Origin: Acidobacteriota bacterium
GTDB lineage: Bacteria > Acidobacteriota > UBA6911
NCBI GenBank assembly: GCA_013388445.1
Contig: JACADW010000136.1
Coordinates: 1-47,288 of the forward strand
Direction: 5' to 3'
DNA length: 47,288 nt
Every line of letters begins with the position of its first letter. Position 1 is the first letter of the stretch. Below the pieces are notes generated by a model, which worked only from the letters and a program-made list of their open reading frames with translations, was not told the origin of the DNA and ran no database searches. Of the stretch, positions 8,530 to 24,630 are shown one piece after another. The translations under genes were made by a program, and so were the position numbers.

Positions 8530-8546
8530 GGTGGTGTTCCCTTTCC

Positions 8547-9338
8547 TCAGAAATAGACCTGCGCGTCCCTCGAAGGCCTTGGATCCTTGCCGATCTCACG
8601 CACCACCCTGGCGGGTATGCCGGCCACGACCGTGTGGGGCGGAATGTCTCTAGACACAACAGCACCGGCCGCCACGACGGCGCCTTTGCCTATCCGGACG
8701 CCGTCGGTCACGATCGCTCCGGCACCGATCCAGACGTCATCCTCGATGCAGATGCCTCTGGCCGTGATCCCCTGGTCCACGAAAGGGCGATCCGCGTCAT
8801 CGAACAGGTGATTCACCGCCAGGAGCTGCACCATGGGCGAGGTGTAGACCCGATTGCCGATGGTTATCCCACCTTGCCCGCGCAGCACGTTATACTCGCC
8901 GATGAGGCTGTCCTGGCCTATCCATATGCCGGAGTGAGGGATGTTCCGGAAATTGTAGACGTGAAGCACCGATCCGTACATGACGAGGGTTCTCGGGCCG
9001 ATCACGATACCCTTTGGGCACGCATGGAGATAGACCCGCTCATCCAGGTAAGAGCCTTTACCCAGCCTTATGTTTCGGGTGTGGCGGAGGCGAACGCCTT
9101 TTTCGACTGCTGCGAGCCCATCCATCTTCAGGATCAGCCGGTACAACAGCGCACGCAACGCGATACCCGCGATTGTCGGCACCCAGCCGGCCAGGCCCGT
9201 CACGGACTGTTCAAGAAGGTATCGTGCAGGTCCGCCGGATTGTCTGCTTATATAGAGCCTGAGGCCCGCCGACAGGGTGCCTCGGGCCTCAGAGTTTGGC
9301 ACTGCATTCATGGTTTCGGATGTGATTCTGCCCGGCAA
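8547..9338 (-). CDS. Left-handed beta-helix (hexapeptide repeat) acyl/acetyltransferase
   Basis: The C-terminal half has hexapeptide repeats: [51 protein letters not shown]. The N-terminal hydrophobic stretch resembles WcaF/sugar O-acetyltransferase-like proteins of EPS loci. The start codon is uncertain. Confidence 0.85.
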
Positions 9339-9731
9339 ATCGGAGTGGCCGCTATCGAAAGACGCTCCTGCACAAGCGCCGGGCCGGAGGCGCAGCTGAC
9401 TCGGCAGCGGGCCTCGGGAGTCGTGCGACAGACGGCTCGTCCGCCGAGAAGCGTTGCTGCCGGACCAGCGGCGCCCGCTCTGTGGGATGGCTTAAGGCAC
9501 CTGCGGCCTACGATTCATTATGATGGCCCCGGTCATCCGCCGGGCGGCCGCAGCTTGCTCTGCCCGGGCATACTGTCATGCGTCGGTGGTTGCGCGCCGC
9601 GCCCATGACGGACAGCTGCGGAAGGAGATCTCGGAGATGGTGCAACCCATTCTCGATACTATGGTCGCGCCTTGGACCCGTGACCTGCCACGACCGGGCT
9701 CAGCAACCCCTGGCACCTACAGACCCCTGTC

Positions 9732-11951
9732 CTATGCCGGCTGCTGCTTGTCCGTCGGTTCGCTGTAGTAGTACTTCCTGTAGAAGGAGTATTCAGGGTT
9801 CTTCAGGTCCACATAGTTGAGCGCCGCCCCCAGGATCGAAGCTCGTGAGCGGACGAGACTGAGGTTGGCCCGCGCCACGACTTCCTTCGGCGTCACGCCT
9901 GCTCTGACGATGAGTATGACGCCGTCCACCTTCGAAGCGAGGATGCTGGCATCCGCCACGCTGAGAACCGGCGCACCGTCGATCAGGACAAACTGGAACT
10001 CCTGCTTCAGCGCGGCGAGGCATTCGGAAAGGCGCGGCGCTGAAAGCAGAGCCACAGGGTTGGGGGGGGTCGGGCCTGCAGAGAGCACGAAGAGGTTCGG
10101 CACATGCGTATCCCGGACGTTGATCTCCCCGCCGGCCAGATGGGTGCTGAGCCCACAGCCATTTGCGACACCAAACCATCTGGAGAGCGACGGATTCCGA
10201 AAGTCAGAATCAATCAGCAACGTCCGGAAACCGCCCTCGGCAAGCGTCCTCCCAAGGCTCACGCAGGTAAGGGTCTTACCTTCCCGGGGTGTGGATGATG
10301 TAATCAGCACGCACCTGGGGGGCTTAGCGGGTCTCGAGAGCAGCAGCGATGCCACTATGGATCTGTAGGATTCCCGGGCGCGCACATCCATTGTCTTGAG
10401 GGCAAGCACGGGAAGCGGGCGGGCACCTGAGCTCCCGGCATCGTCGTAGATACTTGCCAACTTCTTGCGGTTCCCGGTCTGGATGGCCGCTTTTCTGGGA
10501 TCCCGCAGTTTCATCGCCGGGATCCAGCCGAGCATGGGAAGTCCCAGCACTTCAAGATCTATGGCGTTTTTCAGAGACCGGTCCAGATATTCAAGGAGCA
10601 AGGCCAGGCCCATTCCTGCAGATAACCCAAGGAGCAGGAGCAGGGAGATGTTCCAGAGCTTCTTGGGCTGGTACGGGACCCTTCCCGGCTGCGCACGGTC
10701 CACGATGCGGATGTTCTCGAACTCGAGACCCGGACTGACGCCTGTCTCGTTCAGGCGCTGGAGCAGGCCCTGGTAGAGCTGCTGACTTGCATCCAACTCC
10801 CTTTTCAGATTGTTGAACTGCACGCCTGCCTCACTCAGCCGGTCCACCAGCAACTGCTGCTCCTTGAGCGTCTGATTCAACATCTCGTACTCATGCTGAA
10901 TGGAGCTCAGGCGGATCTGCGCATCTCTTTTCGCACGCGCGATCGCCGCGCGCTTTTCCTGCAGCAACTGCTCCCGCGCAACGGCGAGGTCTTTTCTCTT
11001 CTGTATTACCTGCGGCCAGTTCTCGCCGAACTGCGTGAGCAATCGGGACAGGTCCTGCTCGTTCTGGATCACGGTCGTTTCCAAGGATGTGATCGCCGGA
11101 CTTCGAAGGCTCTCGGGGAATTCCTCGGGTGTGATTCCCTGGATCTGCTGCAATTCTGCCTGCCGGGCGATGTAGCTGGCCTGCGCTCGCGCGAGGTCAG
11201 CGCTCAAGAGGCCAAAACGCTGGCGTATGACGTTCACTTGGTTGCTGTCCGTGTCCAGGATCTTGTTCCGGCGTGCGTATTCGATCAGATCCGCTTCGGC
11301 CTGCTCGACTTTCTTCCTGAGCGCTGCGAGCTGCGTCTCAAGGAATTCGTTGGCCTTGCGCGTAGTATCGATCTTCCTCTCAAAATGCAGCCGCATGAAT
11401 TCCTCGGCGATGATATTCGCAGCCAAGGCGGAAAACTCAGGCTCGAAGGAAATGTAGCTTATCTTCACAATCTGGCTGCCATCGATGCGCCGAATCTGCA
11501 TCCCCGCGCCGAAATCGCCACGGATCATCAGCTGATCCCTGGGCGGATTCCTGGCTTTGTATTCCTTAGCAGCACGCTCGTAGGAACTCATCATCAGCGT
11601 GGGGCTCCTGAGCAGTTCATCCTGGGTTTTCATGTAGAGTTCGTAATCGCGGGAGGGCTGAAAAACGGAGTCTGAAACCGAATTATAGGGCAGAACTTTT
11701 ACCGCTTCCGGCTCGATCTGAACGACGGCCGTTGAAACGTACGTCGGCGTCACCAGGAATGTGTATATCGTCCCGGGTATCATAACCACGAGCGTTGCTA
11801 TCAGGATCAGCAACTTCCGGCTGGCGAGTGCCATAAATATCCGGCGCACATCGAACTGGCCGGAGAAATCGCGGGCTCTCGCTGCCGCGTAGCTCTGCAC
11901 CTCCGACGCCGGCGCCAAAGAAGTGTGGGTGGTGGGGATCAAGCTTTCCAT
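9732..11951 (-). CDS. Polysaccharide co-polymerase + BY-kinase (Wzc/EpsG-like chain-length determinant tyrosine autokinase)
   Basis: 739 aa. N-terminal TM helix plus Wzz-like region, then a long coiled coil and a second TM helix. P-loop TSSTPREGKTLTCVSLG, Walker A-prime LLIDSDFRNP, Walker B FVLIDGAPV. Tyr-rich tail YVDLKNPEYSFYRKYYYSE. Confidence 0.9.
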   Translation of the reverse strand: MESLIPTTHTSLAPASEVQSYAAARARDFSGQFDVRRIFMALASRKLLILIATLVVMIPGTIYTFLVTPTYVSTAVVQIEPEAVKVLPYNSVSDSVFQPSRDYELYMKTQDELLRSPTLMMSSYERAAKEYKARNPPRDQLMIRGDFGAGMQIRRIDGSQIVKISYISFEPEFSALAANIIAEEFMRLHFERKIDTTRKANEFLETQLAALRKKVEQAEADLIEYARRNKILDTDSNQVNVIRQRFGLLSADLARAQASYIARQAELQQIQGITPEEFPESLRSPAITSLETTVIQNEQDLSRLLTQFGENWPQVIQKRKDLAVAREQLLQEKRAAIARAKRDAQIRLSSIQHEYEMLNQTLKEQQLLVDRLSEAGVQFNNLKRELDASQQLYQGLLQRLNETGVSPGLEFENIRIVDRAQPGRVPYQPKKLWNISLLLLLGLSAGMGLALLLEYLDRSLKNAIDLEVLGLPMLGWIPAMKLRDPRKAAIQTGNRKKLASIYDDAGSSGARPLPVLALKTMDVRARESYRSIVASLLLSRPAKPPRCVLITSSTPREGKTLTCVSLGRTLAEGGFRTLLIDSDFRNPSLSRWFGVANGCGLSTHLAGGEINVRDTHVPNLFVLSAGPTPPNPVALLSAPRLSECLAALKQEFQFVLIDGAPVLSVADASILASKVDGVILIVRAGVTPKEVVARANLSLVRSRASILGAALNYVDLKNPEYSFYRKYYYSEPTDKQQPA

Positions 11952-12917
11952 ATACGAATCCTTGGTCGAGTGCCGCGGAGCGCGCCACCCGGATAATCAT
12001 CTGCCTTCGTGAGATAAAACGCAATATTGCCGCCGGCAAGTGCGGGCACGGATCTCCGGCTCGCCGGAGGAGAAGCACTATAACATCCCACGGGCATTTG
12101 GGAATCCCGACTTGCCGAGCCGGAATTCAACGGCTCAGTCTCTCTGTTCATCGGCACGTGACGTGAAAACGCCCAGATCCACGGTGTAAGCAATGAGTGG
12201 ACATGCTTCCGAATAGACTCCGTCCCTCTCACTCACAGTCCTCGCTGGCTCCGCTGACCTCACTCAGGAGATTGGATCCGGAGCGGCCAGGAAAGAGCTG
12301 CATCGAACCATGAGAGTCAATGACCCGTTTTCGAGGAGGGGATGCCGCCTATTATCCCTCAGTCGGCCGCCGCTAGCAAGCCCTGCGGGAAAAAACTGCG
12401 AGAATGGCATCTCATGATCCTCAAGCGAGCGGGTTTGACCGGACCAGGCATCAATCCGCATCACGGCACCCGGCACGCTGCGGTCAATATCAAGACCCGA
12501 ACTTGTGCTTGGTACGACGACTACCCACTCGGCCGGCTCGATCCTCCCGGGACGCCAGTTCGTCTGTCTGAGGACCTCTGCCACCCGGCGCCCCCGGTCC
12601 AGTCGAAGCGGGCAAGATGCTCGCGCGAAACGATCTCCACGAGCCCAGTAAACCTATCGGAACAACAGTGCGCTGGCGTGAGATTCATGATCCGCGAAAT
12701 CTTGCCAGCTCCACAGGGTCGAATCAAGCCCCAGAGTCGCCCGTCTCCGTTAAGAGTCTCAAGCAACGCTGATCGCGCGGGCAGCTTGGTTTTCGCATGC
12801 GGCCGAACGGGTATTCCATCAGCGGCATTCACCACCGATCGCACATGGGCGTTACCCGGCTCGACAGGCCAGATCCCTATTATCACTGGACCGGAGAACG
12901 CTCCGGCGGGGGGTCGA

Positions 12918-13688
12918 ATGCGCGGCCGGCGTGTGGACCTGCGGATCCAGGCTCGGACTTGTAGTAAAACCAACCTCGATGCTTTCTCGCAGGTCTTTTC
13001 CACGATTCCCGTCCTCATCGACGAGGCATCGACGACCTTGTACTTCCCGCAGGTGGCGGACGGCGGCACCTACCGGACCAACTTCATCCTCCTCAACCCG
13101 GGGACAAGCCCGGCAACAGCAAGGTTGGAGTTCTACGATGACGACGGCAACCCGCTCGGACTCCCGATCGGGGGCCTGGTCCGGACAAGCCATGAGGTGC
13201 AGCTGAGCTCACGCGGAGCAGCGCGTTTCCTGACCGACGGGACATCGACGTCGGTGAAAGTCGGATGGGTCAAGGTCACCTGCCCTACGGCCATCGGCGG
13301 GTCGTCCATTTTTCAGACCCTGAACGGAAACGTGATCACTTCCGAGGCGGGCGTCGCATCCTCACCTTACTTGTCCCGATTCACAGTCTACGTCGAGACG
13401 GCCGGGTCCGCCTGGTCCGGACTGGCGATCTGCAACCCGGGCAGTTCGGCTGTGGACGTCACGCTCAAGCTCCGTGACTCGTCCGGCGCCCAGAGAGACA
13501 CATTCATCCTCAGGCTTCCGGCCCGTGGGCACGTCGCGCGCTTTTTCACGCAGTGGTTCGGCGACTACCCGAACTTCGAGGGAACGCTCGAGGTCGTCTC
13601 CTCCACGCCGGTGAGCGGCGTGGCGTTGCGCTACGACAACCCCGGCCTGACCGTCTTCGCCACCCTTCCCGTGGTTGCCATTCAATAA
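12918..13688 (+). CDS. Two-repeat paralog of the C-terminal module of the downstream secreted proteins. No signal peptide is visible, so it may be a truncated remnant.
   Basis: The track ORF is 12342-13688. Only from about 13030 onward does the frame show high third-position GC and clear paralogy. Examples: TLYFPQVADGGTYRTNFILLNPGTSPATARLEFYDDDGNPLG and WSGLAICNPGSSAVDVTLKLRDSSG, with the tail VSGVALRYDNPGLTVFATLPVVAIQ versus FALFGTNNLSVLSAIPAQPAP. The ATG at 12918 is the nearest in-frame start and is a guess. Confidence 0.45.
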   Translation: MRGRRVDLRIQARTCSKTNLDAFSQVFSTIPVLIDEASTTLYFPQVADGGTYRTNFILLNPGTSPATARLEFYDDDGNPLGLPIGGLVRTSHEVQLSSRGAARFLTDGTSTSVKVGWVKVTCPTAIGGSSIFQTLNGNVITSEAGVASSPYLSRFTVYVETAGSAWSGLAICNPGSSAVDVTLKLRDSSGAQRDTFILRLPARGHVARFFTQWFGDYPNFEGTLEVVSSTPVSGVALRYDNPGLTVFATLPVVAIQ

Positions 13689-13837
13689 TCCTGGAATACA
13701 GGACGGTTTCGCTGTAACATCTGCGGTTATCGTCAGCCAAGTTGACCGGCGACAGAAACCACGCGATATGTGACAGATTGCACATATCGGATGTGTGTCT
13801 CTATAGGATTATTTGGGCGTCCGCGTGGAGTGTCCGC

Positions 13838-14350
13838 ATGGCTCATACTTTCGGAATTATGCGAGATTCGTCGAAGGCAATCCTCTGGTGCGTCGTCCTT
13901 TGCGCCCTTGGCAGTCCGCCTGCCTGGGCGGATGACGTCGGGCTGGCCTGGGATCCTAACACAGAAACCGACCTCGCCGGGTACAAGGTCTACTACGGCA
14001 CCGCGTCCCGCACGTACGGGCCGCCTGTCACCATCGGACTTCAAACCACATATACAGTCACGAACCTGCCGCCCGGCACCTACTATTTCGCGGTGACGGC
14101 TTACAACACCGCCGGCCTGGAAAGCGGATTCTCGAACGAGGTATCCGCCAACATCCCGGGCACGCCCTCGGGTTGCGATTGTAACGGCGACGGCCAGACC
14201 AACGTCAGCGACATCCAGACACTGGTCAACGTCGTCCTCGGGGCGATCCCGGGCGGATCGGCCTACGATGTCAACCGGGATGGGGTGGTCGATATTGTCG
14301 ACGTGCAGATACTCGTAAACGTCATCCTTGGTCTCAGGAGCTGCCCATGA
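13838..14350 (+). CDS. Small secreted protein: signal peptide + Fn3-like domain + type-I dockerin-like domain
   Basis: Signal peptide MRDSSKAILWCVVLCALGSPPAWA; the alternative ATG at 13859 is also possible. Fn3-like LAWDPNTETDLAGYKVYYGTASRTYG...GTYYFAVTAYNTAGLESGFSNEV. Duplicated Ca-loop/helix CDCNGDGQTNVSDIQTLVNVVLG and DVNRDGVVDIVDVQILVNVILG (about nt 14174-14335). I trimmed the track ORF start at 13742. Confidence 0.8.
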   Translation: MAHTFGIMRDSSKAILWCVVLCALGSPPAWADDVGLAWDPNTETDLAGYKVYYGTASRTYGPPVTIGLQTTYTVTNLPPGTYYFAVTAYNTAGLESGFSNEVSANIPGTPSGCDCNGDGQTNVSDIQTLVNVVLGAIPGGSAYDVNRDGVVDIVDVQILVNVILGLRSCP

Positions 14351-17067
14351 AGCCCAACACACTCCACCGCACTCATCTGATATTGCACAGCTGCCTGATT
14401 CTGGCCGCTCTGTTACTCCTTCCGTGTGCCGCGCAGGCGCAGACTCCGTCGCTCTCAGTAGGAACGGCCGCGGGTCTCCCGGGCACAAACGTCGACATCT
14501 CCGTGTCGTTTACTCCAGGGGCAACCGCCGTCAGTTCCCTTCAGTTCGAGCTGACTTTTCCCTCCTCACTGGGCTATGTGTCGACTGCCACCGGCGCTGC
14601 CGCAACCGCGGCGGGCAAGTCTGCCACGGGGAATGCTATAGCCGGCGGCGTGCGGGTTCTCGTATTCGGACTCAATCAGAATGCGATCGGGAGCGGCGCC
14701 GTTGCGATCATTACGCTGAGTATCGCCGGCGGTACCCCTGCGGGAAACATCGCAATCGGCATCATGTTCATCAACGCGTCGGATCCGAATGGGAGCCCGG
14801 TAACCGTCACCGGCACGGGCGGGACGGTGACAGTGAACGCCCCCGCCGACACCACACCGCCGACGATCAGCAACGTTTCGGCCGGCAGCATAACGCAGAC
14901 CTCTGCCGCCATCACCTGGACCACAAACGAGGCCGCAGACAGTCAGGTTGAATACGGCACGACCACATCCTACGGAAGCAGCACGACGCTCGATTCCACG
15001 AGAGTCACCGCCCACTCGCAGGCGCTGAGCGGACTGACGGCCGGCACTCTGTACCACTACCGCGTGAGATCGAGCGATGCGGCCGGCAACCTCGCCGTTT
15101 CCACCGACTACACCTTCACGACGGCCTCAGGGTCGGACACCACCCCTCCCGTGATATCCGCGGTATCGGCGTCCGGCATCACCCCTTCGTCGGCCGCCAT
15201 CCGGTGGATCACCAACGAACCGGCGGACACGCAGGTCGAGTACGGCACAACTGCTGCATACGGATGGTCCACCAGCCTCAACGGCGCTGCGACCACGACT
15301 CACAACCAGACACTCAGCGGCCTCTCTGCAAGCACGACCTACCACTACCGTGTGAGATCCCGGGACACGGCCGGCAATCTCGCCGTGTCCACCGACTATA
15401 CCTTCAGGACGGCTGACCCCGACAGCGAGTCGCCGGGGATCACGGATGTCAGGGCCGAGCCCGGGGACCTGTCGGCGATCATCACATGGACGACCGACGA
15501 ACCTTCCACATCTCAGGTGGAATTCGGCACCACAAATGCATACGGCGAGCAATCCGCCGTGTCGAACAGGATGGTCACATCGCACTGGGTGCGCCTGACC
15601 GGGCTCACGGAGTTGACGGAATATCATTTCAGAGTGCTGTCCAACGACCCGTCAGGCAACCTCGCGGTTTCAATGGATCACACCTTCAGGACGACCAAGA
15701 ACGAGCAGCGGCAGCCTGTGAGCCTCCATCTTCCCACTCTCTCGGGCGGCCAGGGTTCTCAGAGCGCGTTGGGCTCCGGCGACAACGAATACACCGGAAT
15801 AGCCCTCGCGAACCTGGATACGGTCGACGCAAACGTCATTTTCACGGCTTTCGATGCCGACGGAAATCCGCTGGCCGGTGCCAATATCACGAATCCGAAG
15901 CAGCTGTCGCTGAAGCCCGGCGCACAGTTGCCGAAGCTGGATTACGAGATCTTCGGCGCAGGCAGCGACCGAATCGGGTGGATGAGGATCGAGAGCGGCG
16001 CCGACAAAGTTACGGGATTCTTCCTAACCTTCGACACCGATCTGATCGTTCTGGACGGTGCAACCGCATCGGCCGAACCTGTCTCTTCCTTTATCCTGCC
16101 GGAGATCGGTGAGGGAGGTTTCACCAGGATCTACCTCGCCAATCCGAACTCCGAACCTGCCTCCGTCACACTCAAGCTCATGAAGTCGGACGGCTCACCG
16201 CGCGCGTCCGCCAGCCGGGTAATCAACGCTTACGGCGTCCTGAACGCCGACATCTACACCGACATCTTCCAATCAACGCCGGATCCTACGGACTATATCC
16301 AGGGTACGTCAGACAGGCGCGTGGTGCCTTTCGAGATGCTAGGTGAGACGGGGAAACACATACGGGTCCTCAGCGGCCAGGACACAGGCAAGGGTTTCAT
16401 GCGGATCTATTCTCCGCAGTATGCGGTCGGCGGCCCGTGGCGTTCGACCGTATCCGTGATAAACCTTGATCCCTGGGCGGCGAGCGTCACGATGAAGTTC
16501 ATCCCCAAGGGCTCCACGCAGCCCACATCGACGGTGGTTCGCAACATCCCGGCCAACGGCAAGATCTACCTTTCGGACCAGTCGATCTTCGTGAGTCCCG
16601 GTTCAGTTCCTCCGGGTGCGGTCGCCGAGGGATACTTGGATATCTGCAGCAGCGGCGGCGCGCGACTGAGCGGAAGCGTCGCGTTCGGGGATTCTCAGGG
16701 CGAGAGCTTCTCGTCGGCGCTGCCTCTGGTCGGTGAACTGAGGACCAGCGTCGTGTTCAGCCATGTCGCGTCCAACGATACCTACTTCACAGGCCTCGCG
16801 CTTCTAAACCCGGGCCTGAGTGCGGCGATGGCGAGGATCGAACTTTATGACGCCGAGGGAAACCGTCAGGAGAGCGCAGATCAGATCGTCCCCGCGCAGA
16901 CTCGGATATCGCGGCTGTTGACGGAATACTTCCCGAATCTCATTTACCAGAGCTGGACATCGGGATACATTCGGGTAAGCTCCACTGTGCCCACAGGCTG
17001 TTTTGCGCTTTTCGGCACCAATAACCTGTCGGTGCTGTCCGCGATTCCGGCTCAGCCCGCGCCGTAA
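14347..17067 (+). CDS. Large secreted modular protein: signal peptide + cohesin-like domain + 3 tandem Fn3-like domains + 4 copies of an unnamed beta-sandwich-like repeat
   Basis: 906 aa. The signal peptide ends in AAQAQT. The cohesin-like region spans aa 33-164 (nt 14443-14838). Three ~95-aa repeats (DTTPPxIS...ITWTTNExADxQVEYGTT..YG...YHYRVRSxDxAGNLAVSTDYTF) span nt 14845-15696. The C-terminal module spans nt 15718-17064. Its ATG overlaps the upstream stop (ATGA). Confidence 0.85.
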   Translation: MKPNTLHRTHLILHSCLILAALLLLPCAAQAQTPSLSVGTAAGLPGTNVDISVSFTPGATAVSSLQFELTFPSSLGYVSTATGAAATAAGKSATGNAIAGGVRVLVFGLNQNAIGSGAVAIITLSIAGGTPAGNIAIGIMFINASDPNGSPVTVTGTGGTVTVNAPADTTPPTISNVSAGSITQTSAAITWTTNEAADSQVEYGTTTSYGSSTTLDSTRVTAHSQALSGLTAGTLYHYRVRSSDAAGNLAVSTDYTFTTASGSDTTPPVISAVSASGITPSSAAIRWITNEPADTQVEYGTTAAYGWSTSLNGAATTTHNQTLSGLSASTTYHYRVRSRDTAGNLAVSTDYTFRTADPDSESPGITDVRAEPGDLSAIITWTTDEPSTSQVEFGTTNAYGEQSAVSNRMVTSHWVRLTGLTELTEYHFRVLSNDPSGNLAVSMDHTFRTTKNEQRQPVSLHLPTLSGGQGSQSALGSGDNEYTGIALANLDTVDANVIFTAFDADGNPLAGANITNPKQLSLKPGAQLPKLDYEIFGAGSDRIGWMRIESGADKVTGFFLTFDTDLIVLDGATASAEPVSSFILPEIGEGGFTRIYLANPNSEPASVTLKLMKSDGSPRASASRVINAYGVLNADIYTDIFQSTPDPTDYIQGTSDRRVVPFEMLGETGKHIRVLSGQDTGKGFMRIYSPQYAVGGPWRSTVSVINLDPWAASVTMKFIPKGSTQPTSTVVRNIPANGKIYLSDQSIFVSPGSVPPGAVAEGYLDICSSGGARLSGSVAFGDSQGESFSSALPLVGELRTSVVFSHVASNDTYFTGLALLNPGLSAAMARIELYDAEGNRQESADQIVPAQTRISRLLTEYFPNLIYQSWTSGYIRVSSTVPTGCFALFGTNNLSVLSAIPAQPAP
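14845..15696 (+). repeat. Three tandem ~285-bp coding repeats (Fn3-like domains) inside the 906-aa gene
   Basis: The repeats are visible at DNA level. For example, gccggcaacctcgccgtttccaccgactacaccttcacgacggcc compares with gccggcaatctcgccgtgtccaccgactataccttcaggacggct. The third copy is more diverged. Confidence 0.85.
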
Positions 17068-17108
17068 ACCCGGGTGGCCGCCTGATCACGACCCGGCATG
17101 TGCCGTGG

Positions 17109-17127
17109 GCCGGGCCGCCGGTCCGGC
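17109..17127. repeat. REP-like palindromic unit GCCGGGCC-GCC-GGTCCGGC
   Basis: Same right arm and loop as the 1604-1622 copy, with one G-T wobble in the stem. It lies 42 nt after the 906-aa gene's stop. Confidence 0.75.
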
Positions 17128-17298
17128 GTTGGAACCCGGCCATAGTCTCGCGAGAGGTAGCCTGCATTCGCCTGGCAAGCGCCCTCGGGTATGGTCTCGC
17201 CGGACGAGCCGTCTCCACTCCACTGGTGGTGCCTTTCGGATGTCTTGCGACGCGGGACAGGTGGAAAGCGCCGCCGGCGCACGAACCGGGAATGGTGG

Positions 17299-17317
17299 GC
17301 CGGACCACCGGTCCGGC
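17299..17317. repeat. REP-like palindromic unit GCCGGACC-ACC-GGTCCGGC
   Basis: Perfect 8-bp stem identical to the 1604-1622 copy, with loop ACC. Confidence 0.8.
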
Positions 17318-17445
17318 AGCTGCGGTCGTCTTGACGGCTGAGCCGGCCGGGCCGCGAAATCCCCCGTCTTTTCTGATATTTTGCACCGCCCCGAAACGTC
17401 AGGATCGACAAGGCTTTCCCTTCATGATACCCTTCCGGCACGCCT

Positions 17446-19299
17446 ATGCGAAAGCTTCCCGGCTCCGCTCTCATGCTCCTGTGCGGAGTTCTGCATGCGG
17501 AGGACGTGCAACTCGTATGGAATCCGAACACCGAGCCTGCCCTTGCAGGCTACAAGCTCTACCAGGGCACGGAGCCACGCAAATACACGACCAGCACCGA
17601 CGTCGGCAAGACCACCACCTTCAAGGTCACGGGACTGCAGCGCGGCATTCACTACTTTGCCGTCACAGCCTATGACTTCAGCCGCGTGGAGAGCGACTAC
17701 TCCAACGAGGTACGTGTCGCGATCGATCCGCCCGGCCAGCCATTCCCCGCGCCGGCGGTCCGCACCGTGGGGAATGCCGCCACGATAGCCTGGGAGACGG
17801 TCCGGCCCTCTGCCGTGCGCATCGACTACGGTCCGACGGTTGCCTACGGGAGTTCGGTCAGTTCCGGCTCCGTCTTCACCCTGAAGCACACGCTGGGATT
17901 GACCGGTCTTGCGCCTGCCACGACGTACCACTACCGGACCGTCTGCCGGGACGACGCCGGCAACGTCACCATCACCGGTGACATGGTCTTCACGACGCCG
18001 GCCGACGCCACAGCGCCGATTGCGGCCACCTTCTATTACCCGCGCACGGTCGGCCCGTCTGAAAACCGGATGTATACGGGTGTGGCTTTCGTCAATCTGG
18101 ACTCCGGCCCGGCCCTCTTGACCTTCAGGCCTTGGGCAGGGGCCGGAACCCTGAGCCCGGGCATCCGGATCCTCAATGCTGGCGAACAGATCGCCGTCCT
18201 GGATGTCGAGATCCTCGGCGAGAGCACGGCGGTCCAGGAATCTGCAGGTTGGGTGGAGGTGAATAGCACCACTGCGAGGATGTTCGGCTTCTTCATGAGT
18301 TTTGACCACGCGCTCAGTTCGCTCGAGGGCTCGACGCTTCTCCGTAGTCCTGTCACAGGCCTGCTTTTCCCTTCGCTCGTCGCCGAGCGTATGCCGCAGC
18401 TCATGCTGGCGAATCCGCGTGAAACGCCGGCCGGCGTGACGCTCGAATTCCTGGGCACGAACGGAACGGTCCTGAGATCGGTGTCTCTCGGCATCGGTGC
18501 GGCAGCAGCCGTCAGTGTGCCATCTCCCGTTGTATTCTCCCATGTCCGCGCCACTTCGGACACGCCGGTCGTGGGTTTCCAGGTTCTCGAGAGGCCCGGC
18601 GATTGGAAAGCCTTCCTGCCGGCTCAGAGCTTCGGATCGGGCGCAACCGTGCTCTGGGGGCTTCAGTATGTTCATGGGGACTTCTGGCATTCCCACGTCA
18701 CGCTCGTCAACACGGGTCCAACCGCTGACACTGTCTCTTTGCGATGGGTGGCGGATGACGGGACGCAAATCGGGCAGGCCCGGTCGCTCTCCATCCCGGC
18801 CAATGGCGGGGCCGTGGTCGCGGACCCCGGTGAATTCGGGGTGGGCGGAGACACAATCCGGCAAGGGTACATCGAGATCCGAAGTGCAGTCGCCCGCATT
18901 GCGGGAAGCGTGACCATCCACGATGAGGCCGCAGGACGATTCGCCACGGCCCTGCCGCTCATCTCCCAGCCGGCAAGCCTCCTTGTCGTACCGCACGTGG
19001 CAAGCGACGGGACTTACTTCACGGGTCTGGCCGTCGCGAACCCATCGGACGCCGACACCCGATTCACCGTCGAACTCCGAGGAGCCGACGGGAATCTCAG
19101 ATCGAGCGTGTCGGAAACCCTGGCTGCAAGAAAAAGGAAGGCGCGGCTGGTCACAGAATTGTTCCCGGAGCTGTCATCCCAGAGCGTGCTTTCGGGCTAT
19201 CTGCGGATCGTCGCAGACCGGCCCGTAGTGGCCTTCGCCGTTTTCGGCACACACGACCTTTCCCTCTTCTCCGCAATCCCCGCCCAGGCTGTGCAGTAG
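17446..19299 (+). CDS. Secreted modular protein: signal peptide + 2 Fn3-like domains + 4 copies of the same unnamed repeat
   Basis: 617 aa. Signal peptide MRKLPGSALMLLCGVLHA. The first Fn3 is a paralog of the dockerin protein's (VQLVWNPNTEPALAGYKLYQG...HYFAVTAYDFSRVESDYSNEV). The second is like the 906-aa protein's (IAWETVRPSAVRIDYGPTVAYG...YHYRTVCRDDAGNV). The C-terminal module runs from about nt 18013 and ends in FAVFGTHDLSLFSAIPAQAVQ. Confidence 0.85.
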   Translation: MRKLPGSALMLLCGVLHAEDVQLVWNPNTEPALAGYKLYQGTEPRKYTTSTDVGKTTTFKVTGLQRGIHYFAVTAYDFSRVESDYSNEVRVAIDPPGQPFPAPAVRTVGNAATIAWETVRPSAVRIDYGPTVAYGSSVSSGSVFTLKHTLGLTGLAPATTYHYRTVCRDDAGNVTITGDMVFTTPADATAPIAATFYYPRTVGPSENRMYTGVAFVNLDSGPALLTFRPWAGAGTLSPGIRILNAGEQIAVLDVEILGESTAVQESAGWVEVNSTTARMFGFFMSFDHALSSLEGSTLLRSPVTGLLFPSLVAERMPQLMLANPRETPAGVTLEFLGTNGTVLRSVSLGIGAAAAVSVPSPVVFSHVRATSDTPVVGFQVLERPGDWKAFLPAQSFGSGATVLWGLQYVHGDFWHSHVTLVNTGPTADTVSLRWVADDGTQIGQARSLSIPANGGAVVADPGEFGVGGDTIRQGYIEIRSAVARIAGSVTIHDEAAGRFATALPLISQPASLLVVPHVASDGTYFTGLAVANPSDADTRFTVELRGADGNLRSSVSETLAARKRKARLVTELFPELSSQSVLSGYLRIVADRPVVAFAVFGTHDLSLFSAIPAQAVQ

Positions 19300-19602: not shown

Positions 19603-19689
19603 TGGTGCCGAAGGGGGGACTCGAACCCCCACGAGCTTAAGCCCACTAGACCCTGAACCTAGCGCGTCTGCCAGTTCCGCCACTTCGGC
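19603..19689 (-). tRNA. tRNA-Leu (anticodon CAG), type II with a long variable arm, CCA encoded
   Basis: The reverse complement reads GCCGAAGTGGCGGAACTGGCAGACGCGCTAGGTTCAGGGTCTAGTGGGCTTAAGCTCGTGGGGGTTCGAGTCCCCCCTTCGGCACCA. Acceptor stem GCCGAAG/CTTCGGC. Anticodon stem CTAGG/TCTAG with loop TTCAGGG. T-arm GGGGG-TTCGAGT-CCCCC. It is close to the E. coli tRNA-Leu(CAG) layout. Confidence 0.95.
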
Positions 19690-19997: not shown

Positions 19998-21167
19998 CTA
20001 CCGCTGATCGAACGCCTCAGACAGACGGCACCACCGCCGAGGATCCTCTGATTCAAGGGCAGCCGGGTCCGCTCCCAGCTGTCTGGCCCGCGCCAGCGCC
20101 TCATCCGCCTTCTCCGTTTCTCCGCAAGCCTCGAGCGCCCCGCTGAGCAGATAGAGGACTCTCGGGCGGTTCGGCTGCAAAGCGTCGGCCTGTTCGAGCA
20201 GCGAGCGTGCCGCTTCCACGTTGCCCTGCAGGTAGCGCAGGATGGCCAGATTCAGCAAGACAGCCGGATCGGACCGCGAAAGTCTTTGGGCTTCGAGCAG
20301 GTGCTCTGCCGCCACGGCATAGTCGCCCCGGCGGAGCTCTGCGACGGCGAGATTATTCAGCGCGGCCGCCGATGGTCGCGCCGAGACTATGGATGCGAAC
20401 GATCGCGCCGCCTCGGCCGCCAGGTCCTTTTTCAGGTAGCACACCCCGAGCAGGAACTGGGATTCCAGATAGCGCGCGGGCCGCCTGCGCGCCGGCTCCA
20501 GGTATCGGATCGCGCTCTCGCAGTCTCCGGAATCGTAGTAGTAGCGTCCCAGCCGGAACTGCGCTTCGGAATAGCTTGGGTGGAGATTCACCGCCCGCCT
20601 GAGCGCGAGGACCTGGTCCTCTTCGTTCGTGCTCTCGAGGCTCGCGATGAGCGCGGCAAAGGCCGAATTCGGGACAGTCCGCGTTCTCTTCTTGAACGCC
20701 TCGCGCGATACGGGCGGGTCGAGCCCGGCGTTGCTGATCAGATTGAAGGCGAGCTCGTTTTCCATCTGAGAGAGAAAGGAGAGCGGACCGCTTGCAGATA
20801 CTGCTCCACCCTTGCGCATTGTCTTCAGGTCGAGCACCTGGAGCGTGATATTGATCCCTCCGGGTGTCCCGGAATAGGAACCGGTCACGACATAATCCAC
20901 CGCCGCCAGCTGGCCCACCCGGATCATGCTGGCCATGCTCAGCGGCAACCCCGGCGGCAAGTCGGCGTGCTCCAGAAGCTCCAGCCGCTCATCCCGGTCC
21001 AGAGCTTTGACACCCGGGACCTGTATCTGTTCGGAGACCGACAGGGCAATCCCTTCAGCCAGCCAGCCGAGCGCGGCCGTGGCTTGATTCTCGGGAGGGA
21101 AAATCAGGAAATTCACGTCCGCGGCCTGCGCCGCGGACAAGCAGAGAAACCAAAAGACGAATCCCAC
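19998..21167 (-). CDS. Secreted TPR-repeat protein
   Basis: 389 aa with a GTG start. Signal peptide MGFVFWFLCLSAAQA. The C-terminal half has TPR-like repeats (AQFRLGRYYYDSGDCESAIRYLEPA..., ESQFLLGVCYLKKDLAAEAARSFASI..., LNNLAVAELRRGDYAVAAEHLLEA..., LLNLAILRYLQGNVEAARSLLEQA...). It is the last gene of the ABC operon, with a 1-nt overlap. Confidence 0.75.
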   Translation of the reverse strand: MGFVFWFLCLSAAQAADVNFLIFPPENQATAALGWLAEGIALSVSEQIQVPGVKALDRDERLELLEHADLPPGLPLSMASMIRVGQLAAVDYVVTGSYSGTPGGINITLQVLDLKTMRKGGAVSASGPLSFLSQMENELAFNLISNAGLDPPVSREAFKKRTRTVPNSAFAALIASLESTNEEDQVLALRRAVNLHPSYSEAQFRLGRYYYDSGDCESAIRYLEPARRRPARYLESQFLLGVCYLKKDLAAEAARSFASIVSARPSAAALNNLAVAELRRGDYAVAAEHLLEAQRLSRSDPAVLLNLAILRYLQGNVEAARSLLEQADALQPNRPRVLYLLSGALEACGETEKADEALARARQLGADPAALESEDPRRWCRLSEAFDQR

Positions 21168-21961
21168 TACTGCTCCAGCACGTATTCCTTCTCGCGAAGA
21201 ATCAGGCTGGCGCTGGCCAGGAAAAACGCGGCCATCAACACCAGCGTGATCACCGACTCAAGCGCCGGTGTCCGCTCGCCGATCATCATCGCGATCGCAC
21301 TCGCCGTATCCGCATGCGGTGAAATCGACTGCACATAATGGGTGACCGTCAGCTTGCGCGTGAAACCGGGCAGGTAGGAGATGATCCCTTCCCACCCGAA
21401 CGCATAGATCAATCCGACCAGGATCGGATGCTTCAGCCACGCTCCGAGCAGGCTGAAGAATGCCCCGTAAACCAGCATCGCAAGGAATACGATGCCGACA
21501 TCCTTGCCCAGCGTGCCGACGTCCCGCATAAGCCTGGTCGTATCCGGACCGAGATAGAGTACCAGATAGCTGACCAGGATGGTCGGGATAACGAGCATCG
21601 AGCTGATCCAGACCAGGGCCAGGTACTTGCCGATCATGATCGCCGGCTTGGGGACCGGCCTCGTGAACAGATAAGTAATGGTCCTGCCCTCGAGTTCCTC
21701 CGAAATGAGCGCGGTCCCGTAGAAGAGAGTCACGAACGTCACGAGAAAATGGATCACGGCCGTCGCCATGAGAGTCCCGAACACCTGCTCGGGCGTGAAC
21801 GGCACGCGGATCCAACTGAAGCTCAGGATCAGGCGGCCGAGGACCGCGAGCCCGACGATCACAAGCGAGACGGCTGCAATGAATAGGGTCTTCTTGCTCC
21901 AGAAAAGGGTATCCAGAGTCAACAACCCGATCGTCTTGACCGGCTTGACCAAATTTCTCAT
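21167..21961 (-). CDS. ABC-2 type transporter permease
   Basis: I trimmed the track ORF (to 22180) to the ATG at 21961-21959, which overlaps the ATPase stop as ATGA. The product is MRNLVKPVKTIGLLTLDTLFWSKKTLF...GTALISEELEGRTITYLFTRPVPKPAIMIGKYL, with six hydrophobic helices. It is NosY/ABC-2-like. Confidence 0.8.
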   Translation of the reverse strand: MRNLVKPVKTIGLLTLDTLFWSKKTLFIAAVSLVIVGLAVLGRLILSFSWIRVPFTPEQVFGTLMATAVIHFLVTFVTLFYGTALISEELEGRTITYLFTRPVPKPAIMIGKYLALVWISSMLVIPTILVSYLVLYLGPDTTRLMRDVGTLGKDVGIVFLAMLVYGAFFSLLGAWLKHPILVGLIYAFGWEGIISYLPGFTRKLTVTHYVQSISPHADTASAIAMMIGERTPALESVITLVLMAAFFLASASLILREKEYVLEQ

Positions 21962-22881
21962 TTGACCAGGTAATGGAAAACGGCCTGAAGGTTGTCGTCC
22001 GGCGAGGTCAGCTCGTCGAGGTCGATCCCACGGCTCAGAAGCAGCCCGGGCAGCCGATCGTAGAATGCGTCGGGCTGACGTGACTCGACCGTGAGGGCGT
22101 TTCCCTCCGGATGAAAACGGACACCGACCACATCCGAAAATCCCACAAGCGCCTCCGCCAGGCGCCGCGGGTCGGAACACCGGATGTGGACATTATGCGG
22201 GTGTTTGTCGATCAGTTCGCGGATCTGATGGACATCGCCTTCCGCGAGGACCCGGCCATTGTGCATCAGGAGGATGTTGCCGGTCATGGCCTCGATTTCG
22301 TGCAGGATGTGGCTCGAGACCACGACGCACTTCCCTTCGCGTCCCCAATCGCGCACCAGCTGTATTGCCTCGTGACGGCCGACAGGGTCCATGCCGGCCA
22401 GCGGTTCGTCCAGGATGATCACTTCGGGATCGTGGGCAACGGTCTGGGCCATCTTGATGCGCTGGCGCATCCCCTTGGAATAGGCCGCGATCTTCTTGTC
22501 GCGGTCCGCGGTGAGACGGACACGCTCGAGAGCCGCATCGGTTCGCCGGGATACTTCCTCTTCAGAATAGCCGTTCAGCCTCAGAAGCGACGAGACAAAC
22601 TCGGCGCCGCTCATGCGCTCATAGAAGGAATCCTGCTCGGGGCAGAATCCCATTCTCGCGAACAGCGGGTAGTTGTTCCAGATCCTCTGCCCGAAGACCG
22701 TTATCTCTCCCTGGCTCGGGCGCAGCTGGCCCATGATCATCTTCATCAGGGTCGATTTCCCGGCCCCGTTCGGCCCGAGGAGGCCAGTCACGCCGGCATC
22801 GACGGAAAACGAGACGCCGTTGACGGCAATCACCTGCCCGTACCACTTCGAAAGGTTGCGGGCTTCAAGGACGGCGCTCAC
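21958..22881 (-). CDS. ABC transporter ATP-binding protein
   Basis: Walker A GPNGAGKST, signature YSKGMRQRI, Walker B VIILDEPLAGMD, H-loop SSHIL. 307 aa. Confidence 0.95.
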   Translation of the reverse strand: MSAVLEARNLSKWYGQVIAVNGVSFSVDAGVTGLLGPNGAGKSTLMKMIMGQLRPSQGEITVFGQRIWNNYPLFARMGFCPEQDSFYERMSGAEFVSSLLRLNGYSEEEVSRRTDAALERVRLTADRDKKIAAYSKGMRQRIKMAQTVAHDPEVIILDEPLAGMDPVGRHEAIQLVRDWGREGKCVVVSSHILHEIEAMTGNILLMHNGRVLAEGDVHQIRELIDKHPHNVHIRCSDPRRLAEALVGFSDVVGVRFHPEGNALTVESRQPDAFYDRLPGLLLSRGIDLDELTSPDDNLQAVFHYLVK

Positions 22882-23720
22882 CTAACCACCTCCACGGCCT
22901 GCACGCGGTTGTGGACGACCCAGGCGCCCCCGCCGATGATCACGAGTACCACCACGACCGATATCCACACCGGGGACGGGTATCTCGGGTCGATGCGGAA
23001 TATCGTGTCGCCGAGCTGCTCGATGTTGTTTCCGAGAGAAACCCACGCCACGCGCCTCGAGCGCAGGATCCCGCTCAGGATGCCGTAAAGGATCTGGCTG
23101 AAGAAGAAGACGGCCGCAAAGTTGATCCCGGCGAAGCGGCTGCTGCGCGTGAGCGAGGAGAGCGTCAGGATGACGAGTGCGAAGGTGAGGACCATGACCA
23201 GAGAATAGGCCGTCACGGATACCGGCACCCAGTAGTGTTCCCGCAGAAAGGCCGTATCGGGCGCAAAGAGCACCGCGAGCAGGAACAGGATCAACCCGGG
23301 GACGAGCGTCGGCAGCGAGAGAAACCAGACAAGGACGCCCAGCTTCCCGATCACGTAATCGCGGCGCGTAATCGGTTTCGAGAAGTAGATCTGCAGAGCG
23401 TTGGCCCGGAGGTCGTTCGAGATCAGCCCGGCACCGGCATAGATCGCGATGAAAAACGCGAAGAACATCTGCTGGCTGATGAAGTCCTCGAAGAACCTCG
23501 CGTTGATCTTCAGAAAAGGCGCGCTCGCCCCGACGACCGTCGCGAAGTAGATCATCGCGCCGCGCACGACAAAGGGGATCGCCGAGAGGATCATCAGAAC
23601 AAGGAACCGGCGCCTCTTCATGAGCAGCTGGATTCCCTGCCGCGTGATCACCCACCACCGGTACGGGTGCGACGTCCATTCGCCCTTCCAATGGCGGTAG
23701 CCGAGGTCATGAATCGGCAT
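22878..23720 (-). CDS. ABC-2 family membrane protein (permease partner)
   Basis: 280 aa. N-terminus MPIHDLGYRHWKGEWTSHPYRWWVITRQGIQLLMKRRRFL, followed by six hydrophobic helices. The start and stop overlap both neighbouring ATPase genes. Confidence 0.75.
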   Translation of the reverse strand: MPIHDLGYRHWKGEWTSHPYRWWVITRQGIQLLMKRRRFLVLMILSAIPFVVRGAMIYFATVVGASAPFLKINARFFEDFISQQMFFAFFIAIYAGAGLISNDLRANALQIYFSKPITRRDYVIGKLGVLVWFLSLPTLVPGLILFLLAVLFAPDTAFLREHYWVPVSVTAYSLVMVLTFALVILTLSSLTRSSRFAGINFAAVFFFSQILYGILSGILRSRRVAWVSLGNNIEQLGDTIFRIDPRYPSPVWISVVVVLVIIGGGAWVVHNRVQAVEVVR

Positions 23721-24630
23721 GCGACTCTCCTATCACCTGGAGGAACACATCCTCTAGCGACTGGCGCAGCGGCACGAGGTGCCGGATCTGGACGCGGCCA
23801 TCGCGTGCCGCCTCGAGGAGCGTCCGGCTGTCCAGGCCGCCGGCCATCCGAATGCGGAGGACGCCGTCTTCGTTGCGTGTGCAGCGGCAGCCCAGCGCCT
23901 CGAGCTTATCCGCGAAGCCGCTTCCGTCTCCCTTGAGCCGCACTTCATAGACCGCGCCCGACCCCCGCTTCAGGTCCTCAATATTGCCGCTGGCCAGCAT
24001 CCGGCCTTTGTGGATCACCATCGCCTCGCGGCAGACCCATTCGACATCGGGCAGCAGGTGCGAGGAGAGGACCACGTGAATCCCCTTGGTGCTGGAGATG
24101 TCGCGGATGAGCTCGAGCATCTCCATGCGCCCTTTGGGATCCAGGCCGTTCGTGGGTTCATCCAGGAAGACCAGCTCGGGGTCGTGCACCAGCGCCTGCG
24201 CCAGTTTGATGCGTTGCTTCATGCCGGCCGAGTACGTCTCGACGTTGCGGTACCGGGCCTCGCCAAGGCCCACATAGAAGAGCGTTTCGTGCGCCCGCCG
24301 CAGCGCGTCTTTCGGCTTCATGCCCGAGAGCTGTCCGGCGTAGGCGACATAGCTGACGGCGTTCATGCCCGGGATATGGCAGTCGTTCTCGGGCATGTAG
24401 CCGATCTTCTGCCGGATGCCCAGTTGCTCCTTGCGGATATCGCAGCCCAGGACCCGCCCGGTGCCGCTTTCAGGTTCGATGAACCCAAGAAGTGTATTCA
24501 GCAGCGTCGTCTTGCCGGCGCCGTTGGGGCCGAGCAGGCCCGCGGAGCCTCCCGAGAAACGGACGTTCACACTGTCGAGGATCTTTTGCGTCCCGAAACG
24601 GACATTGATGTTATCGAGTTCTATGATCAA
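23707..24630 (-). CDS. ABC transporter ATP-binding protein
   Basis: Walker A GPNGAGKTT, signature YSAGMKQRI, Walker B LVFLDEPTNGLD, H-loop SSHLL. The track start at 24678 is a TTG. I prefer the in-frame TTG at 24630, which gives MIIELDNINVRFG, a typical ABC N-terminus. The start remains uncertain. Confidence 0.9.
   Translation of the reverse strand: MIIELDNINVRFGTQKILDSVNVRFSGGSAGLLGPNGAGKTTLLNTLLGFIEPESGTGRVLGCDIRKEQLGIRQKIGYMPENDCHIPGMNAVSYVAYAGQLSGMKPKDALRRAHETLFYVGLGEARYRNVETYSAGMKQRIKLAQALVHDPELVFLDEPTNGLDPKGRMEMLELIRDISSTKGIHVVLSSHLLPDVEWVCREAMVIHKGRMLASGNIEDLKRGSGAVYEVRLKGDGSGFADKLEALGCRCTRNEDGVLRIRMAGGLDSRTLLEAARDGRVQIRHLVPLRQSLEDVFLQVIGESHADS

Follow-up and report, generated by a model that had tools for sequence, protein, structure and literature searches.

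A C-terminal tetrad of ASRAH-superfamily domains on secreted Acidobacteriota proteins, predicted to act as a carbohydrate-binding anchor

The stretch of DNA analysed here as a whole, which we call the window, is 47,288 nt long and contains a group of four genes on the forward strand, A256, B202, C906 and D617, followed on the opposite strand by genes for a TPR protein and for ABC-2 transporters (Table 1). B202, C906 and D617 carry signal peptides that have, read from the sequence, the ordinary look of SPase I substrates, and A256 is devoid of one. The translation of B202 likely starts at the ATG in position 13838, and its stop codon overlaps the start of C906 by 4 nt. Its FN3 module is 52% identical to that of D617 over 82 aa, and its sequence shows two D-x-N-x-D-G repeats. 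The N-terminal domain of C906 (aa 31-178) has no Pfam match of its own; it is 47-50% identical to domains of P0057, P0026 and P0011 that pass the Pfam Cohesin gathering score, and BLASTP also aligns it to the P0193 cohesin (E=2e-4). A dockerin with two putative Ca-binding repeats and a cohesin are both encoded at this locus, and the two may form a pair.

Table 1. Positions of the features of the locus in the window
Feature	Position	Strand	Evidence or remark
A256, 3' remnant of a tetrad-protein gene	12918..13688	+	its units match tetrad positions 3 and 4
Final beta-strand FSQVFSTIPVLID left over from the preceding, lost unit	12984..13022	+	aligned to '...VFSTIPVLVDE', the strand between units in P0139, P0159 and P0168
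A256, block of units	13026-13685	+	
A256 unit 1, position-3-like	13026..13364	+	HMM 106.5 bits; independent u3 profile 56.4 bits; model pLDDT 95.8
A256 unit 2, position-4-like	13365..13685	+	HMM 118 bits; independent u4 profile 58.7 bits
B202, secreted FN3 + type I dockerin protein	13742..14350	+	Pfam fn3 34.5 bits; Dockerin_1 32.6 bits (gathering score 22.9)
C906: signal peptide, cohesin, three FN3, C-terminal ASRAH tetrad	14347..17067	+	
C906 cohesin domain	aa 31-178, nt 14437-14880	+	homology to Cohesin-passing domains
C906, three FN3 modules	~nt 14860-15711	+	
C906 tetrad (block 15757-17064)	15757-16077, 16078-16389, 16393-16737, 16738-17064	+	HMM 95.9-125.4 bits
D617: signal peptide, two FN3-type modules, C-terminal ASRAH tetrad	17446..19299	+	Pfam DUF5719 42.4 bits
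D617 FN3 modules	aa 18-99 (B202-like); aa 112-190 (second, FN3-like)	+	
D617 tetrad (block 18019-19296)	18019-18348, 18349-18636, 18640-18969, 18970-19296	+	HMM 82.5-123 bits
TPR protein	19998-21167	-	Pfam
Two ABC-2 permease / ABC ATPase pairs	21167-24678	-	Pfam

The initial annotation had recognized in three ORFs a single module of ~110 aa, in two, four and four copies, and every peptide that it quoted is found in the sequence. When the entire window was scanned in six frames with an HMM, precisely ten units, each of 98-115 aa, came out in this 2+4+4 pattern over A256, C906 and D617, all other matches being at the level of noise. By BLASTP, C906 and D617 align with E=1e-77 across ~530 aa, and A256 and D617 with E=1e-13; out-of-register alignments were also obtained, which points to an internal repetition. 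Independent profiles for the four tetrad positions (u1-u4) were built from 150 other proteins, the window's own proteins being left out. The units of C906 score 124-156 bits against the profile of their own position, and the ten units score mostly 13.7-72 bits against the profiles of the other positions, each of them having at least two cross-position matches above the highest score of the shuffled controls. The units of a tetrad are not equivalent, each of the four positions having its own consensus. No DNA-level repeat was found among the units, so the duplication must be old.

Could this resemblance be a fortuitous one between beta-rich proteins with much Ala, Gly and Ser, rather than the mark of a true repeated domain? 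Some pairs of units are only 15-20% identical, and three cross-position scores (7.0, 7.4 and 9.3 bits) are no better than those of shuffled sequences, whose top score was at most 9.8 bits with 1000 shuffles per profile. Against this stand the other cross-position scores, the comparison of the four position profiles among themselves by hhalign (probability 97.7-99.7%, E 1.5e-12 to 1e-25), the same fold predicted with high confidence for all units, and an Asn at the end of strand 2, the sole invariant column, present in all ten. A chance resemblance has practically no likelihood left, and the hhalign E values together with the shuffled controls rule it out: the ten units are homologous repeats. 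The G-[WY]-h-x-h-x-S motif (h, hydrophobic), present in about eight of the ten units, had been taken for the end of the unit and is followed by further strands. The tail common to the three proteins (LSAIPAQ or VFATLPV) forms the final beta-strand of the last unit; in A256 it is carried by unit 2 as VFATLPVVAIQ.

Although A256 does contain two units, it is not an intact two-unit gene but the 5'-truncated remnant of a tetrad protein. Unit 1 is nearest to position 3 and unit 2 to position 4 in profile scores, and the nearest relatives of A256 (50-63% identical) have two extra units upstream. In P0151, a protein of 1415 aa composed of LTD, beta-helix and tetrad, only residues 1181-1414 align to A256. 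The coding periodicity begins at ~12987, with a GC3 of 0.82 downstream and flat values (0.60/0.59/0.64) upstream, and no upstream homology was detected in any frame. What survives in A256 is the 3' half of the tetrad of a degraded gene, the relatives of which are LTD + beta-helix (polysaccharide-lyase-like) proteins.

The module, described initially as unnamed, belongs to a catalogued family. D617 matches Pfam DUF5719 (PF18986) with 42.4 bits for the full protein and 45.4 bits for the cassette alone (gathering score 26.2), its units 3-4 covering positions 64-213 of the 319 of the model, that is, a dyad. A256 remains below threshold (20.5 bits) and C906 has no match; of 40 relatives, 38 match DUF5719 at E<=1 (best 2.6e-13), D617 and most relatives being above or near the gathering score. 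The all-beta sandwich first suggested is borne out by AlphaFold models that are nearly all strand, both for the D617 tetrad (pLDDT 92.6, pTM 0.91) and for the A256 dyad (pLDDT 95.8, pTM 0.90). In Foldseek searches with these models, the low-rmsd matches were exclusively TM1070 (1nc7; TM 0.68-0.75, with an rmsd of 2.6-3.6 A over 112-117 columns, probability 1.00; TM 0.68-0.69 and probability 1.00 for the D617 tetrad) and ASRT, the sensory rhodopsin transducer of Anabaena (2ii8/2ii9; TM 0.70-0.77, probability 1.00), the remaining matches listed having rmsd values above 14 A. These two proteins are the prototypes (1NC7; 2II7/2II8/2II9) of the ASRAH superfamily, an eight-stranded beta-sandwich described by De Souza, Iyer and Aravind (2009, Biol Direct 4:25; PMC2739507), in which strand 2 ends with an almost absolutely conserved Asn. 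For each tetrad position, 97-99% of 152 relatives have this hallmark, within a strand 2 consensus [YF]-T-G-h-A-h-h-N or W-R-S-T-L-S-h-h-N. Judged by profiles and models, the ten units are ASRAH-superfamily domains of the DUF5719 sequence family, and constitute a family-level new member of an already known superfamily whose function is predicted only.

The units share the sandwich and the Asn of the prototypes and differ from them in their presumed ligand contacts. The SHEshChhN signature is absent: in place of its His and Cys, proposed to contact the ligand in TM1070, the units have Y/F and A, or R and S. The conserved Trp that follows a polar residue where strand 1 begins in the superfamily (W7 in TM1070; PMC2739507) is not evident in the strand 1 consensus (F/Y/L, e.g. 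LYsPQYv, vfsqvAS), the comparison being made on the consensus. No significant match to a CAZy-type CBM was obtained with Pfam or Foldseek; Pfam gave sub-threshold noise (Dit-like_CBM2, E 0.1; AMPK1_CBM, E 0.27; Agarase_CBM, E 0.029), and no CBM stands at low rmsd among the listed Foldseek matches. The replaced ligand residues, the missing CBM match and the Trp not evident in strand 1 count against the model favoured below. In sequence, the resemblance to ASRT itself is marginal: five of 40 relatives match PF07100 (best E 2.6e-4), and ASRT (2ii7) comes first in a PDB profile search, Asn on Asn, but with an E of only 0.24. Furthermore, PF07100 proper comprises stand-alone cytoplasmic proteins of ~125 aa with SHEshChhN, whereas the proteins of the window are multi-domain and secreted.

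In secreted proteins, ASRAH domains are reported to come without exception as dyads or tetrads (PMC2739507), an arrangement found again here; the predicted role, binding of carbohydrate at the cell surface, is likewise shared. PF18986 probably corresponds to the actinobacterial lipoprotein dyad family of that study; it has two units, whereas four stand here at the C-terminus of long multi-domain proteins. The actinobacterial lipoproteins have a lipobox Cys with N- and C-terminal extensions and are encoded near WhiB, glycosyltransferase and inactive zincin genes, whereas a canonical lipobox is absent here and the neighbours are TPR, ABC-2 and FN3-dockerin genes. The amidase-associated tetrads of Chloroflexi also have four tandem domains in a secreted protein and were proposed to form an intramolecular tetramer binding a cell-envelope glycan (PMC2739507). 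They differ by their phylum and their fusion to an amidase, the passengers here being cohesin, FN3, BACON and beta-helix, among others; of the domains listed for C906, D617 and 83 scanned relatives, none is an N-acetylmuramoyl-L-alanine amidase. The main text of PMC2739507 does not mention Acidobacteriota.

In this phylum, the four-unit block is a standard C-terminal cassette on many secreted proteins of soil members. The tetrad family amounts to 16,247 clusters (E<=1e-3), and all 17 genome matches are Acidobacteriota, with several paralogues per genome (at least five in one MAG). Among the 156 best-scoring relatives, 153 have exactly four units, and in 142 the cassette ends at most 15 aa from the C-terminus, with a conserved last strand; in a minority (P0023, P0035, P0008) it is internal or N-terminal. 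The passenger domains (cohesin, FN3, BACON, TIG, SBBP, LRR, PPC, subtilase, GSDH, and LTD + beta-helix) form a set typical of surface or glycan-active proteins. Around the tetrad genes, the conserved elements are the FN3-dockerin gene, the cohesin-tetrad genes, the TPR gene and the ABC-2 transporters. In two other loci (L001 and L003), B202 orthologues lie directly upstream of cohesin-tetrad genes, and orthologues of the TPR and ABC-2 genes (42-76% identity) follow the tetrad genes in the same order; the TPR gene also has an orthologue in L002 and L004, the TPR/ABC-2 orthologues having been found at 4 of 17 loci only. The EPS context initially invoked as a clue to function does not hold in this comparison: the EPS cluster adjoining the genes of the window is absent from the synteny conserved in the other Acidobacteriota loci.

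The model we propose, which we favour as a whole with somewhat better than even confidence, keeps the carbohydrate binding that had been guessed at the outset, a reasonable guess. The four non-identical units, arranged head to tail at the extreme C-terminus of C906 and D617, are predicted to pack as one rigid, compact body, which would be the single-chain counterpart of the homotetramer of solo ASRAH proteins, a pseudo-tetramer geometry suggested by the pTM of the model. For ASRAH domains, the binding of a sugar or another small molecule was predicted in a cleft lined by strand 2 and completed by the dimer interface (PMC2739507); the block would most likely bind a carbohydrate ligand in the corresponding strand-2-lined clefts at the domain interfaces. 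Once bound, it would tether secreted multi-domain proteins to cell-surface or extracellular polysaccharide, the cargo being here the cohesin-FN3 scaffold of C906 and the FN3 protein D617, and the small FN3-dockerin protein B202, encoded just upstream, would dock on the C906 cohesin. The tetrad is probably a carbohydrate-binding anchor, a function predicted for a family that is already catalogued and whose extracellular members have predicted functions only; we found no report in the literature of sugar binding shown for any ASRAH member.

Two other functions have to be weighed. The tetrad could be a structural or protein-binding body without glycan or small-molecule ligand, for instance the base of a stalk, or a module for oligomerisation or for binding a partner. 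This would agree with ASRT, the single ASRAH member studied experimentally, a cytoplasmic protein whose reported partners are its rhodopsin and DNA, as well as with the lack of conservation of the proposed TM1070 ligand residues and with the neighbouring cohesin, dockerin and FN3, which are protein-interaction modules. The polar and aromatic residues around strand 2 are, however, strongly conserved position by position, as in the TYFTGxAxLNP of unit 4, and catalytic domains active on glycans (beta-helix lyase-like, GSDH) are joined to the tetrad as they are to CBMs, so that we hold a purely structural or protein-binding role for unlikely. Alternatively, the tetrad could be an Acidobacteriota-specific domain for C-terminal sorting, secretion or outer-membrane attachment, comparable to the type IX C-terminal domain of Bacteroidota and recognized by a machinery rather than binding a free glycan. 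Its terminal position and conserved last strand, the extreme diversity of its passengers, its several paralogues per genome, its restriction to Acidobacteriota among the genome matches and the synteny of one subfamily with a periplasmic TPR protein and ABC-2 transporters would all fit such a role. But its ~440 aa in four domains lie far above any known sorting tag, its homologues include cytoplasmic solo proteins and Actinobacteria dyads (PMC2739507), the minority of internal or N-terminal cassettes and the few loci with TPR/ABC-2 orthologues are at odds with it, and no fold match to T9SS C-terminal domains was found; we regard a sorting function as quite improbable.

By analogy, the carbohydrate-binding anchor that we prefer may be set beside SLH domains, the CBMs of scaffoldins and the T9SS C-terminal domain, which are likewise conserved terminal modules on unrelated secreted proteins; the ~440-aa tetrad has no sequence or fold kinship with any of them, and it co-occurs here with cohesin and dockerin modules. 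That it might be a general surface anchor or sorting module of Acidobacteriota, comparable to SLH or T9SS C-terminal domains, and part of a non-cellulosomal cohesin/dockerin scaffold displaying proteins on the cell's own polysaccharide layer, is a speculative extension to which we give a low probability.

In conclusion, for the window alone our observations mainly improve the annotation. Acidobacteriota are among the commonest soil bacteria, and little is understood of how their cell surface is built and decorated. Many of the large proteins that they secrete have the tetrad block at the C-terminus, and its family counts thousands of members with a function that is predicted only. Could it bind a defined polysaccharide? 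If this were shown, it would assign a function to Pfam DUF5719, provide the first test of the ASRAH sugar-binding prediction made in 2009, and give a handle on the display of surface proteins in Acidobacteriota, their cohesin-dockerin pairs included.

Scanned in six frames with the repeat HMM, the whole window gave exactly ten units (2 + 4 + 4), the rest being noise, in agreement with the count and coordinates of the initial annotation. By BLASTP, C906 aligns with D617 at E=1e-77 and A256 with D617 at E=1e-13, out-of-register alignments being found too. Searched exhaustively as a profile, the ten-unit alignment retrieved 16,247 representative clusters at E<=1e-3, of which 1,251 reach E<=1e-30. 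Separate profiles were made for positions 1-4 of the four-unit block (tetrad) from 152 of the best proteins, and hhalign among them gave probabilities of 97.7-99.7%, with E from 1.5e-12 to 1e-25. When the profiles were rebuilt without the window's own proteins and the ten units were scored against the profiles of the other positions, the scores were mostly 13.7-72 bits, for a shuffle maximum of at most 9.8 bits (1000 shuffled units per profile); three cross-scores lay inside the shuffle range, each unit still having at least two clear cross-position matches. By BLASTP, hhalign and the cross-position scores relative to shuffles, the repeat is real.

Genes of the + strand run and their syntenic or flanking features (the number in a protein name is its length in amino acids)
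Feature	Position	Strand	Content or relation
Wzc-type gene	9732-11951	-	divergent to the A256 side
A256	12918-13688	+	2 units at 13026-13685
B202	13742-14350	+	Pfam FN3 and, at aa 146-195, type I dockerin
C906	14347-17067	+	signal peptide, N-terminal domain, three FN3 modules, 4 units at 15757-17064
D617	17446-19299	+	signal peptide, two FN3-like modules, 4 units at 18019-19296
TPR protein and two ABC-2 permease / ABC ATPase pairs	19998-24678	-	syntenic with tetrad genes, 42-76% identity in loci L001 and L003

The module, left without a name in the initial annotation, is in fact already catalogued: D617 passes the Pfam family DUF5719 (PF18986) with 42.4 bits (gathering score 26.2), A256 falls just under the threshold with 20.5 bits, and the scan of C906 with this family gave no match. 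Among 40 relatives, 38 match DUF5719 at E<=1 and five also match PF07100, the family of ASRT, Anabaena's sensory rhodopsin transducer (best E 2.6e-4). The NCBIfam scan assigned no family to the repeat region and gave only weak matches, on the FN3 and dockerin parts. The search of PDB sequences with the unit profile returned nothing significant, the top match being ASRT at E=0.24, in an alignment that pairs the invariant Asn of the module with the Asn of ASRT. On predicted structures, this lead was later confirmed by the fold search. The AlphaFold models of the D617 tetrad, aa 193-617 (pLDDT 92.6, pTM 0.91), and of the A256 dyad, its two units (pLDDT 95.8, pTM 0.90), are of high confidence and, among the Foldseek matches listed against the PDB, gave a low rmsd only with 1nc7 and 2ii8/2ii9, all at probability 1.00: TM 0.68-0.75 and rmsd 2.6-3.6 Å for Thermotoga TM1070 (1nc7), TM 0.70-0.77 for ASRT (2ii8/2ii9). 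All the other matches listed have an rmsd >14 Å, and the top ranks for both models (complement C5, CD109, GH2 enzymes, pilins, vicilins; TM 0.1-0.25) were rejected as multi-beta-domain artefacts. The beta sandwich suspected from the sequence is thus borne out by the models and by their match to TM1070 and ASRT.

The ASRAH superfamily was defined from the TM1070 and ASRT structures by De Souza, Iyer and Aravind (PMC2739507), who describe a beta-sandwich fold whose strand 2 ends in a nearly invariant Asn, solo forms that are cytoplasmic and tetramerise, and secreted forms that are always either dyads, as in a lipoprotein family of Actinobacteria, or tetrads, as in amidase fusions of Chloroflexi. 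This Asn is the sole invariant column across our ten units and is present at each tetrad position in 97-99% of the 152 relatives; its conservation, together with the fold, identifies the module as an ASRAH domain. Acidobacteriota were not found in the main text of PMC2739507, and literature searches for DUF5719 and PF18986 found no papers. The repeat-bearing genes add new members to a known superfamily and form a large acidobacterial family that is not described in the papers searched.

No repeat among the units was detected at the DNA level, so the duplication of the unit is old. Repetition in the DNA is confined to the three FN3 modules of C906 (15006-15695), with 64-76% identity and a period of ~285 nt, and a 50-nt piece at 17887-17936, in the second FN3-like module of D617, also matches this repeat. 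Since the FN3 repeats of C906 are still visible in the DNA, their duplication or exchange is much younger than the ASRAH repeats.

The tetrad behaves as a C-terminal cassette: 153 of the 156 best-scoring proteins have exactly four units, and in 142 of the 156 the cassette ends at most 15 residues from the C-terminus, with the consensus tail FALFGTxxLSVLSAIPAQ. The similar tail previously noticed in the three window proteins is present, and corresponds to the last strand of the last unit. The four positions differ from one another, each with a separate consensus (for example LYsPQYvvGgxWrstlSxvNL for unit 3 and TYFTGxAxLNP for unit 4). The residues conserved in a position-specific way lie at offsets -8 to -3 relative to the invariant Asn, and in the G-[YW] strand. 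The pTM values of the models (0.90-0.91) indicate that the domains would be packed in a fixed arrangement, and this predicted geometry would agree with the intramolecular tetramer proposed in the literature. The domains carried N-terminally as passengers vary widely, including cohesin, FN3, BACON, TIG, SBBP propeller, LRR, PPC, subtilase, glucose/sorbosone dehydrogenase and LTD plus beta-helix domains. All 17 related loci found in species-representative genomes belong to Acidobacteriota MAGs, often as tandem paralogues, with at least five copies in one MAG; as the search pattern, drawn from a 7-sequence alignment, was narrow, this taxonomic uniformity comes from a biased sample and the locus count is a lower bound. 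In several long-read MAG assemblies, tetrad genes are split by frameshifts (L018 at 9559-10885 and 13906-15232; L015 and L016 at ~7400-9300), and the public protein calls of the family are therefore often truncated (e.g. P0176, 295 aa).

In the window, the four + strand genes lie head to tail between the divergent Wzc-type gene and the convergent TPR gene, and secretion signals are present in three of the four proteins, A256 being without a signal peptide. The public call of D617 (P0001, 597 aa) leaves out the first 20 codons from the ATG at 17446 (17446-17505), and the longer reading gains a plausible signal peptide, MRKLPGSALMLLCGVLHA. A tRNA-Leu(CAG) gene (19603-19689, - strand) occupies part of the 700 nt that separate the D617 stop from the TPR gene.

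A256 is the remnant of a tetrad-bearing gene. Its nearest relatives (50-63% identical) have two extra units upstream, its own units are closest to tetrad positions 3 and 4 by the position profiles, and it opens with the last strand of a lost preceding unit, FSQVFSTIPVLID. P0151, a relative of 1415 aa (LTD, beta-helix and tetrad), aligns to the window by its last 234 residues only, and no homology was found upstream of A256 in any frame. Coding periodicity begins at ~12987 (GC3 0.82), the preceding ~1 kb showing a flat codon-position GC of 0.60/0.59/0.64. From the wzc start codon to the A256 fragment (11952-12986, ~1 kb), coding periodicity is absent in any frame; the ORFs on either strand at ~11.7-13.1 kb have no Pfam match, and Rfam gave none within 11900-13000. 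A mobile-element remnant was considered and is unsupported; the 11952-12986 segment has the appearance of a decayed stretch at a rearrangement junction. A faint leftover similarity to the lost unit is seen just upstream of 12984. In a related MAG, an A256-type gene follows LTD and beta-helix domains, and its apparent split is an assembly frameshift.

B202 and C906 share 4 nt, the stop of the first overlapping the start of the second (ATGA at 14347-14350). The N-terminal domain of C906, at aa 31-178, has 47-50% identity with domains scoring above the Pfam Cohesin threshold. The FN3 of B202 is 52% identical to the first FN3 of D617. The adjacent dockerin and cohesin genes (13742-14880) are kept as a pair in loci L001 and L003, which suggests a non-cellulosomal cohesin-dockerin complex; a literature search combining Acidobacteria, cohesin and dockerin found nothing relevant. 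The conserved order (L001 and L003, partly L002 and L004) comprises the FN3-dockerin gene, the cohesin-FN3-tetrad gene(s), the convergent TPR gene and the two ABC-2 permease/ATPase pairs, followed in L003 only by a metallopeptidase-like gene (PepMx). The TPR and ABC-2 genes could, for example, serve to export a ligand polymer or the tetrad proteins themselves. Upstream, the window carries an EPS cluster of GT4, GT2, Wzy-like, radical SAM, acetyltransferase and Wzc genes, in which the radical SAM enzyme (5486-7156, - strand) is of the B12-binding type. The EPS proteins matched no called gene of the 17 related loci by BLASTP (flanks up to 8 kb); the EPS link is therefore not conserved, and the functional argument formerly drawn from it fails.

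The model we propose is that the tetrad would bind an envelope or matrix carbohydrate and thereby tether its N-terminal domains, B202 docking onto the C906 cohesin. The earlier guess of carbohydrate or matrix binding thus loses its EPS argument and keeps its plausibility on other, indirect grounds, namely the published contextual argument for the superfamily (PMC2739507) and the CBM-like fusion of the tetrad to lyase-like and sugar-oxidising catalytic domains. The sugar-binding cleft of ASRAH domains, which strand 2 would line and the dimer interface complete, is itself a prediction (PMC2739507). Against glycan binding, what has been reported for ASRT is binding to its rhodopsin and to DNA, and the proposed ligand residues of TM1070 are not conserved in these units. 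The tetrad could instead be a purely structural or protein-binding body, or a lineage-specific sorting or attachment domain. If the tetrad were the general surface-anchoring module of the Acidobacteriota, the interest of these genes would grow.
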